A stretch of 64,000 bases of DNA from Anaerolineae bacterium (GTDB lineage Bacteria; Chloroflexota; Anaerolineae; S140-20). This document shows positions 29,627-30,433 of the stretch, piece by piece (positions within the stretch are counted from its first letter, which is position 1; the number at the start of each line of letters is the position of its first letter). Both the position numbers and the translations under genes were made by a program. Below the pieces are notes generated by a model. It did not search any database, was not told where the DNA came from, and saw nothing but the letters and a program-made list of their open reading frames with translations. Where the stretch lies: NCBI GenBank assembly GCA_027021705.1, contig JALUTT010000120.1, forward strand, positions 7,702 through 71,701, read 5' to 3'.

Positions 29627-29675
29627 GGTGTGAAGCGTAGGGCATAGCACCAAAGCGTGAAAGGCGAACGGTCGG

Positions 29676-29718
29676 CCGGCGCACCGGAATCGAGTTCCGG
29701 CGCGCCGATTTTTACGCT
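29676..29718 (+). terminator. Rho-independent terminator after the NUDIX gene
   Basis: gccggcgcaccggaa-tcgag-ttccggcgcgc stem (one mismatch) followed by CGATTTTTACGC. Confidence 0.6.
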
Positions 29719-29769
29719 CAGTTTATGGCAAGACGGCCTTCTTTCAGGTACAATGTTTAACGAAGTGTC

Positions 29770-29864
29770 TTCCTCTCGCAGTCACGCGGTGCCCGGTGAC
29801 GGCAATGGCTTGTCGGAAGCTGTCTATGACGCGCTCAGGCTGTGGGGGGAACCTGCGGAAGGGG
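29770..29864. repeat. Degenerate type-2 TIR miniature element
   Basis: CTCTCGCAGTCACGCGGTGCCCGGTGACGGCAATGGCTTGTCGGAAGCTGTCTATGACGCGCTCAGGCTGTGGGGGGAACCTGCGGAAGGGG aligns along its length with the 24827-24922 element. Both TIRs carry substitutions. Confidence 0.6.
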
Positions 29865-29879
29865 CGGCGAGCTGATGGT

Positions 29880-30095
29880 CAGGCTCTCCTACCTCTGGGG
29901 ATGGGGTCGTATTGGTGGTGAGGTCATAGGTGGAGTAGTGGAGAGTGCCCGGCACCCGTTAGGACGAGTGTGTAGCGGAGAGGCAGGATTCCGGGTGTCG
30001 GGCGAGGGGAATGGTGCCCGGCACCCACCATTGCGGGCTTGTGGCGGATGGGGGTGAGGTGTAGAGGCAAGGCTCTGGGTGTCGGGCACCGCATT
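29880..30095. repeat. About 2.5 imperfect tandem copies of a ~75-85-nt unit containing near-palindromic GGTGCCCGGCACC boxes
   Basis: Units at roughly 29936-30006 and 30007-30092 share GTGCCCGGCACCC...GTAGCGGAGAGGCAGG/GTAGAGGCAAGG...GGGTGTCGGGC. A partial unit precedes them. Confidence 0.55.
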
Positions 30096-30366
30096 AAAAG
30101 GCTCCTACCGAGCAGACGCGCGCTGGATCCTTGTGGGACAGTACCCGGCACCGATCCGAGGTGCCGGGTACTGCTTTGACCGGTGATGATCCACATCTGA
30201 GGGCAGGGAGGCTAGCTGCCCACGAAGGGGGCACGAATGCACGAAGGAGGAGCTGCCCCATTCGTGCATTCGTGAGAAATTCGTGGATGGCCTGCTGCGG
30301 CCCATTTCCTCGCCCACTTCTGGGGTAATTACCACTTCTGAGGGGGTGGGCAACGGTGCTCCGCCG

Positions 30367-30375
30367 TGGTATAAT
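30367..30375 (+). promoter_or_regulatory. Extended -10 element TGGTATAAT, candidate promoter of the ABC transporter operon
   Basis: TGnTATAAT lies about 58 nt upstream of the dppA-like ATG. No good -35, consistent with an extended -10 promoter. Confidence 0.45.
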
Positions 30376-30433
30376 CTTTCGCTACGTATCCCTCTCGCGC
30401 ATCACTCCCACGTACACACCCCGGAGGTGCACG

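Follow-up and report, generated by a model that had tools for sequence, protein, structure and literature searches.

Positions 29897-30173 of the DNA stretch analysed here probably carry a cluster of repetitive extragenic palindromic (REP) elements, similar to bacterial interspersed mosaic elements (BIMEs) and to REPINs, i.e. REP doublets forming hairpins. The whole stretch, referred to as the window, comprises 64 kb (64,000 nt, GC content ~65%) of contig JALUTT010000120.1 from an Anaerolineae bacterium. The cluster lies in an 807-nt spacer between the stop codon of a NUDIX hydrolase gene (29626) and the ATG (30434) of an SBP_bac_5 gene on the + strand, the first gene of a peptide/nickel-type ATP-binding cassette (ABC) importer operon. 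This spacer is probably made up mostly of small selfish palindromic repeats together with a putative decayed copy of a second repeat, which would make it ordinary junk DNA of bacteria rather than a purpose-built operator array or riboswitch. Directly supported are the membership of its palindromes in a repeat family by sequence, the association of this family with genes of REP-associated tyrosine transposases (RAYTs) in relatives, the arrangement of the palindromes into hairpin doublets and the bias of the family towards positions 3' of genes. RAYTs are HUH/Y1 enzymes which bind and cut hairpins in single-stranded DNA. Nearly all features listed in an earlier reading of the region, made without database searches (hereafter the sequence-only reading), were present, with coordinate offsets of 1-5 nt.

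Boxes and hairpin doublets in the spacer

The repeated unit, hereafter the box, is a 13-15-nt palindrome (A)GGTGCC[C/G]GGCACC(T), six to seven copies of which were found in the spacer. Five of them (29944, 30013, 30078, 30140 and 30160) have at most two mismatches to GGTGCC[S]GGCACC and are packed within 230 nt, in agreement with the sequence-only reading, which had counted at least five occurrences of a near-palindromic box. Two weaker copies are located at 29992 and 29787, the latter (GGTGCCCGGTGAC) inside the decayed copy of the second repeat. One exact box was found (30013), compared to 0.014 exact 13-mers expected per window from base composition, and the box at 29944 is one base off this copy. 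No comparable box occurs anywhere else in the 64-kb window.

Along the strand, the box centre alternates C, G, C, G, C, G, a feature absent from the earlier reading. From this, it follows that the six good boxes constitute three inverted pairs, i.e. three hairpin doublets on the + strand with spacers of 33, 48 and 7 nt. In doublet 1 (29944-30004), box AGTGCCCGGCACC (29944-29956) pairs with GGGTGTCGGGC (29992-30003), the arms 29947-29958/29992-30003 forming a 12-bp stem with one G.T pair around a 33-nt G-rich spacer. Doublet 2 (30013-30090), in which GGTGCCCGGCACCCA (30013-30027) pairs with TGGGTGTCGGGCACC (30076-30090) over 15 bp at 93% across a 48-nt spacer (z = -3.4), is a tandem duplicate of doublet 1 plus a 15-nt insertion. 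Repeat comparison and direct reading also revealed a partial G-rich unit (29897-29941, + strand) that is similar to the spacer of doublet 2 (TGGTGGTGAGGT versus TGGGGGTGAGGT). What had been read as about 2.5 tandem repeats of ~80 nt was thus recovered as two units of 69 nt (29940-30008) and 84 nt (30009-30092) and the partial G-rich unit. The repetition is nevertheless weaker than claimed, since the two units are 71-74% identical over 35-42 nt and were not called by Tandem Repeats Finder.

Doublet 3 (30139-30173, + strand) is the perfect hairpin CAGTACCCGGCACC-gatccga-GGTGCCGGGTACTG already noticed before. Its arms (30139-30152/30160-30173) are complementary at 14 of 14 positions around a 7-nt loop, and its predicted fold reaches -18.5 kcal/mol (z = -7.6 versus shuffled sequences). 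Neither arm possesses a two-fold symmetry of its own (GTAC...GCAC), and still the arms are fully complementary to each other. As self-symmetry was lost while pairing between the arms was kept, a hairpin rather than a symmetric duplex site is indicated as the relevant form.

The box family and RAYT genes in related genomes

Outside this locus, the box was searched for in genome contigs and in metagenomes (loci compared are designated by L and a number). The pattern used for genome contigs, GTGCCCGGCACC-N20-50-GGTGYCGGGC, was too permissive: more than 100 matches were listed, most of which lay in high-GC Actinomycetota and Proteobacteria and were either coding (a conserved betaproteobacterial gene, for instance) or due to chance. 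Among the matches listed, only three Anaerolineae metagenome-assembled genomes (MAGs) and one Planctomycetota MAG were informative, and the genome of the window itself did not appear. All three Anaerolineae/Anaerolineales MAGs among these matches (L027, L090 and L106) harboured clusters of exact boxes in intergenic DNA. In these clusters, the boxes are arranged as tight doublets forming hairpins (AGGTGCCGGGCACCT-tcg-AGGTGCCCGGCACCT) and in tandem with periods of 39-55 nt and conserved spacers.

The metagenome scan, requiring two boxes 2-32 nt apart, yielded at least 120 loci. Among the loci listed, to which the following numbers refer, 280 boxes were present in 652 kb, against ~0.14 expected from composition. 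Pairs with a spacing of up to 10 nt were inverted in 55 cases and direct in 13, an excess of inverted pairs that is REPIN-like. More than one separate cluster was present on 12 contigs, and in L153 boxes occupied five intergenic regions of 7.3 kb. According to crude gene calls, 32 clusters were situated between co-directional, 24 between convergent and 7 between divergent genes, often a few nucleotides 3' of a stop codon; the window cluster itself lies between co-directional genes. In a profile of 305 distinct boxes, position -2 is A in 62% and position -1 is G in 90%, with C and T mirrored at the other end as part of the palindrome. No Rfam family was detected at gathering score in 14 related loci, and a full-text literature search for the literal box retrieved primer sequences only. 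The kind of element is already known (REP/REPIN-type repeats), while the literal family was not found in the literature searched. Bioreactors, sediments and hot environments are the sources of the Anaerolineae/Caldilineae-type Chloroflexi in which the family appears to be widespread. A longer hairpin, GAAGGTGCCCGGCACCCCCT-loop-AGGGGGTGCCGGGCACCTTC, with conserved flanks was observed in L139, L140, L155, L192, L194, L205, L208, L210, L215 and L240; in most loci called intergenic it is located 18-19 nt after an open reading frame (ORF) of ~113 aa, and the two may represent a conserved gene-terminator pair built on the box.

We examined the association with RAYTs by checking the ORFs of box-selected loci for HUH and Tyr motifs, followed by tblastn. 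A RAYT-like gene of ~190 aa was present in six of these loci, namely L106 (an Anaerolineales MAG), L021 (a Planctomycetota MAG), L162 (an AT-rich contig), L153, L156 and L163, and in none of ~115 chance-match genome loci. The three proteins scanned (L106, L156 and L163) matched Pfam family Y1_Tnp (PF01797) above cut-off with E about 1e-10, and their sole NCBIfam match was NF047646, REP-associated tyrosine transposase, with 72-78 bits; the genes in L153, L162 and L021 were identified by tblastn to these three. Boxes were located within ~110 nt upstream of the gene in 6/6 loci. In four of the six (L106, L163, L156 and L153), boxes were also found 14-360 nt downstream, those on the two sides of the gene having opposite orientation in L156 and L153. 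Downstream boxes were absent from L162, and the nearest one in L021 was ~560 nt off.

For a converse test, loci were chosen by RAYT homology and not by the box, using the L163 protein as query and picking contigs for their size. The search retrieved more than 3000 relatives, several of which bear the Joint Genome Institute (JGI) name 'REP element-mobilizing transposase RayT'; one relative comes from a Caldilineae MAG. The five loci picked (L247-L251) encode RAYTs 60-86% identical to that of L163, and hairpin doublets AGGTGCnnnGCACTT-loop-AAGTGCnnnGCACCT flank the gene in every one of them, the outer bases being different in L251 (GTGACCGGCAC). With the six loci picked by the box, RAYT genes flanked by box-type repeats were therefore found in 11 related loci, and H60 and H62 of the HUH motif, the catalytic Y120 and N124 were invariant in the RAYT alignment. 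The doublets of L249 have ~70-nt spacers, like doublets 1 and 2 of the window. In L106 and L247-L249, the arms are mutually complementary and have lost their own two-fold symmetry, as in hairpin 3.

As for the box centre, L247, which encodes the closest RAYT (86% identical), has CCSGG as in the window, whereas RAYTs 60-63% identical are accompanied by CCWGG (L248 and L249), GAYGC (L250) or GACCGG (L251). The exact CCSGG-centred box, on the other hand, flanks RAYTs that are only 25-37% identical. The outer arms GGTGC...GCACC are constant across Chloroflexi contigs, the AT-rich contig and the Planctomycetota MAG, a constancy across such distant RAYTs that is partly due to selection bias from the choice of loci. 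If the pattern goes beyond sampling bias, it is conceivable, although unlikely in our view, that a conserved host factor, and not the RAYT, reads the outer arms, or that the centre triplet serves as a specificity code between RAYT and REP; the window cluster would then record a turnover of REPs in which the box was replaced by the second repeat, called type-2 below. Recognition of REPs by RAYTs could conveniently be studied on the natural variants of the box centre. Together with these variants, (A)GGTGCC[S]GGCACC(T) constitutes a family of REPs to which a RAYT clade of ~195 aa corresponds.

Some RAYT loci showed further peculiarities. The RAYT-like gene of L162 (3568-4242) contains an exact box at 3734 within a 29-aa insertion relative to its relatives, which suggests that the RAYT gene was itself the target of a REP insertion. 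In L247, a DDE (IS4/IS5-type) transposase gene (6708-8303) lies between the RAYT gene and the downstream box array (8389-8500), which would be a later insertion sequence (IS) integrated into a REPtron-like locus. Contigs of the RAYT clade are mostly ~0.7-3 kb long, which fits REP arrays breaking short-read metagenome assemblies. Repeats of this kind break metagenome assemblies in general and inflate intergenic spacers.

Several observations weigh against the interpretation of the window segment as a REP cluster. The ~72 kb searched (the window and ~8 kb of further contig) contained neither a RAYT gene or remnant nor a second box cluster, and tblastn at E<=10 detected no RAYT remnant in the window, L001, L243, L244 and L246; the absence of a RAYT from ~72 kb is to be expected, because RAYTs are usually single-copy. 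High copy number and RAYT linkage were seen in relatives only. The NF047646 scores are just under the 80-bit equivalog cut-off, and the GTAG/CGTC tag was absent from the profile of 305 boxes. The crude gene calls scored 55 clusters as coding, at least some of them owing to spurious high-GC ORFs (e.g. L090) and others being true coding repeats. Within the cluster, doublets 1 and 2 are degenerate, and no counterpart of their long G-rich spacers was found elsewhere. Finally, the REP model leaves a 66-nt CACGAA palindrome and the CCACTTCTG repeats of the spacer (both described below) unexplained.

A model of the origin of the cluster can nevertheless be proposed. We infer that a RAYT encoded elsewhere in this genome, or since lost, placed the elements here. 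By analogy with known RAYTs, the enzyme would recognise the box hairpin (AGGTGCCSGGCACCT) where replication forks expose single-stranded DNA, and would cut and join beside it, seeding copies in extragenic DNA. The cluster would have arrived 3' of the terminator-like hairpin that follows the NUDIX gene, or have expanded there through local duplication, and local slippage or unequal recombination could then have duplicated the 69/84-nt unit. The two doublets with long G-rich spacers are tandem duplicates, and the third is a tight perfect hairpin. The present effect of the elements is probably neutral. The stable hairpins of E. coli REPs have been described as barriers to transcription or mRNA decay. 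At most, the elements studied here could, by analogy, act in the same way, blocking read-through from the NUDIX gene or from a weak promoter-like match at 29725-29754, or shielding the 3' end of the upstream mRNA.

Alternative explanations and other features of the locus

The hairpins had been taken for possible attenuators or a small RNA (sRNA) in the sequence-only reading, and the region might accordingly encode a structured RNA, either a leader, attenuator or riboswitch, or an sRNA starting from 29725-29754 and ending at hairpin 3. We consider this very unlikely. The explanation can draw on the match itself, a sigma-70-like ATGGCA-18-TACAAT on the same strand (9/12, consensus match only), which may be a promoter, so that transcription into the repeats could occur. 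Moreover, only the + strand tolerates the G.T pairs of doublets 1 and 2, and its fold is slightly better than that of the - strand for these units; alternative pairings were noticed by direct reading around 30203-30286. However, the window had no match in Rfam 15 at gathering score and the region gave only noise at E<=10, and the + strand of 29755-30185 (~430 nt) folds no better than shuffled sequences (z = -1.4), the - strand being only modestly better (z = -2.7); on these whole-region folds, a large structured RNA was dropped as a candidate. Hairpin 3 is followed by CTTTG without a U-tract, and the terminator scan made no call there. Related sequences elsewhere share the REP box and no RNA architecture, the hairpins are not conserved outside the species, homologous importer operons have unrelated leaders, and a strong match to an importer promoter is situated downstream of all hairpins.

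The boxes had also been proposed as operator sites of a dimeric regulator. Such a duplex operator array for a transcription factor, importer-specific or global, is highly improbable here, even though each box is a near-perfect two-fold palindrome, a stretch of 400 bp upstream of a transporter promoter contains six to seven of them, and many organisms share their core, as would result from a conserved DNA-binding specificity. The distribution of the family speaks against it: in well over a hundred contexts, unrelated to each other, the box occurs mainly 3' of genes (24 convergent and 32 co-directional contexts versus 7 divergent ones) and in tandem arrays with conserved spacers, and it flanks RAYT genes. 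Instead of self-symmetry, the arms keep their mutual complementarity in hairpin 3, L106 and L247-L249. At the locus itself, the nearest box is ~175 bp upstream of the importer -35 element. Homologous importers have no boxes upstream, and the palindrome has no other copy near any promoter in the 64-kb window. It follows for annotation that the hairpins and palindromes of the locus should not be labelled operators, attenuators or sRNA without transcript data, and a false lead is thereby removed.

That the boxes are unrelated GC-rich hairpins or terminators whose likeness is fortuitous, given a genomic GC content of 65%, is effectively refuted, since, common as loose versions of the motif are (more than 100 chance or coding matches in Actinomycetota and Proteobacteria), only 0.014 exact copies are expected per window, the five close copies in 230 nt have no like elsewhere in 64 kb, and exact identity to a repeat family flanking RAYTs is no product of chance. 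Among other kinds of elements, a CRISPR array was rejected because the spacers between the repeats are themselves conserved, and sequence and context likewise spoke against attC/integron sites, parS/NBS-type sites and iterons, which were discarded.

With the REP cluster thus preferred, the second repeat of the spacer remains to be described. A putative decayed copy of a 126-nt inverted-repeat element, type-2, spans 29768-29864, as aligned to the copies at 32114, 33349, 59773 and 62770. Type-2 elements have terminal inverted 14-mers, ACCCTCCCGCAGGT...ACCTGCGGGAGGGT, ~83 nt apart. The degenerate type-2 element of the sequence-only reading is plausible: its right end ACCTGCGGAAGGGG (29851-29864) matches the terminal 14-mer ACCTGCGGGAGGGT at 12/14 positions, although the left end (29768-29781) is weaker and the interior cannot be aligned. 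The suggested resemblance of the box to the type-2 core was not borne out, as no type-2 copy carries a box at up to two mismatches and the box family flanks RAYT genes elsewhere. Judged from these comparisons, the two families are separate. As for the broader idea of a graveyard of such elements reused as regulatory DNA, the spacer is indeed a dump of small repeated elements, but a derivation of the box from type-2 is not supported and regulatory reuse is no more than conceivable.

The abundant repeat of this genome is type-2, not the box. Six perfect inverted ACCTGCGGGAGGGT pairs were found in 64 kb, five of them ~83 nt apart and one shorter; copies are located at 24828-24922, 28061-28157, 32125-32221, 33360-33456, 59784-59880 and 62780-62834, another is at 8592, and degenerate pairs are found at 51816/51868 and 59220/59303. 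The inverted-pair architecture of type-2 is itself REPIN-like. In the importer operon, the spacers between the substrate-binding protein (SBP) and permease genes (32087-32325, 239 nt) and between the two permease genes (33343-33467, 125 nt) are longer than the corresponding ones of homologous operons (64-79 and 2-3 nt in L252, L254 and L255) because of type-2 insertions. These copies within an ABC importer operon recall the classical REPs between malE and malF, and they could shift the ratio at which binding protein and permeases are expressed.

The 5' border of the spacer is formed by the NUDIX hydrolase gene (29111-29626, + strand). It is followed on the same strand by a terminator-like hairpin, CGGCGCaCCGGAA-tcgag-TTCCGGcGCGCCG and then ATTTTT (29677-29713), recognised by direct reading and folding (DNA fold -15.2 kcal/mol, z = -3.0). 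A consensus terminator scan did not call this hairpin because of an internal mismatch in its stem. No credible ORF exists in the spacer, as had been stated before: none of the five ORFs of at least 60 aa (65-90 aa) belongs to a Pfam family at E<=0.1. At the 3' border, the importer start region (30347-30436, + strand) comprises a putative promoter, a short leader, the Shine-Dalgarno sequence GGAGGTG (30423-30429) and the ATG at 30434. The promoter, TGGGCA-17-TGgTATAAT (30347-30375, + strand), is a consensus match with the extended -10 element seen earlier; it is better than the match at 29725-29754 and lies 58 nt ahead of the ATG. Most likely, the importer is transcribed from this promoter of its own, 3' of the repeats. 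One match of the SBP, 98% identical, comes from a Chloroflexi bacterium MAG, and an identical SBP is encoded on contigs from hydrothermal-vent and other metagenomes.

Two features close to the importer promoter are better candidates for true regulatory sites of the importer, and both are unique to the species in the data reached. The first is a 66-nt imperfect palindrome (30220-30286, z = -7.0) with three CACGAA and three TTCGTG motifs, whose core is the second perfect hairpin of the earlier reading (14-bp stem, 30232-30245/30261-30274). It is unique in the window and may be a local operator or another small repeat. The second consists of three CCACTTCTG repeats, CCAC(T/A)TCTG(A/G)GGG, revealed on the + strand by a direct-repeat search at 30191, 30314 and 30332 (30191-30344), the latter two abutting the -35 element. 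All three copies of the window at no more than one mismatch are in this spacer and none is elsewhere in the window; we can only speculate that they are activator sites. In two homologous operons, which encode SBPs 54% identical and are found on three contigs (L252, L254 and L255), the upstream region is unrelated and lacks the boxes, the CACGAA palindrome and the CCACTTCTG repeats alike. Therefore, these features represent lineage-specific insertions rather than a conserved leader/operator set.

Two strains (the window and L002) differ in the spacer by five single bases (30076, 30101, 30200, 30219 and 30307), despite an identical 550-aa SBP. Both the hairpin 3 stem and the 14-bp core of the CACGAA palindrome are unaffected, and five differences are too few to read constraint either way. 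A 14-nt TGCACCTTGCGACC-like unit is repeated in tandem ~12 times elsewhere in the window (35099-35266), on the C/T-rich strand.

Comparison with known repeat systems

The REP/BIME elements of E. coli resemble the cluster in being short GC-rich extragenic palindromes, often arranged as inverted pairs and in clustered mosaics, in their bias towards positions 3' of genes, and in flanking an HUH/Y1 gene (TnpA-REP, YafM). Classical examples are found inside operons of ABC importers (malE-malF, for instance), and gyrase, IHF (integration host factor) and Pol I are their binding partners. In contrast to E. coli REPs, the box lacks a GTAG tag and has a self-symmetric 13-15-mer stem, and one cluster in ~72 kb compares with hundreds of REP copies in a genome of E. 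coli. The hairpins located subterminally in IS200/IS605 elements are likewise imperfect hairpins recognised in single-stranded DNA by a Y1 HUH enzyme. These, however, end autonomous IS with tnpA (and tnpB), whereas no gene is present between the hairpins here, and the repeats flank a RAYT-like gene in relatives.

Within the phylum, the closest counterpart considered was that of Thermomicrobium roseum (Chloroflexi). According to Di Nocera et al. 2013 (PMC3733652), 87 of its 97 GTAG-23 REPs are 'grouped' in blocks at few loci, and REPs are likewise biased to convergent and co-directional intergenic regions. The low copy number and the grouping resemble the single cluster described here; the GTAG-23 family differs by carrying the GTAG tag. 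Neither the accessible text of that paper nor its supplements contain the literal box.

As for REPIN-RAYT systems, the replicative unit in P. fluorescens SBW25 is an inverted REP doublet forming one long hairpin (Bertels & Rainey 2011, PMC3116915), and a RAYT flanked by its own repeats is the defining arrangement of REP/REPIN-RAYT systems (PMC3116915; PMC3733652). REPIN populations are described as lineage-specific; the box, by contrast, retains the same core beside RAYTs of 25-37% identity, and its mobility is inferred. Like the REPINs of SBW25, it forms doublets with spacers of tens of nucleotides, its RAYT is typically single-copy and repeat-flanked, and decayed singletons persist together with doublets.

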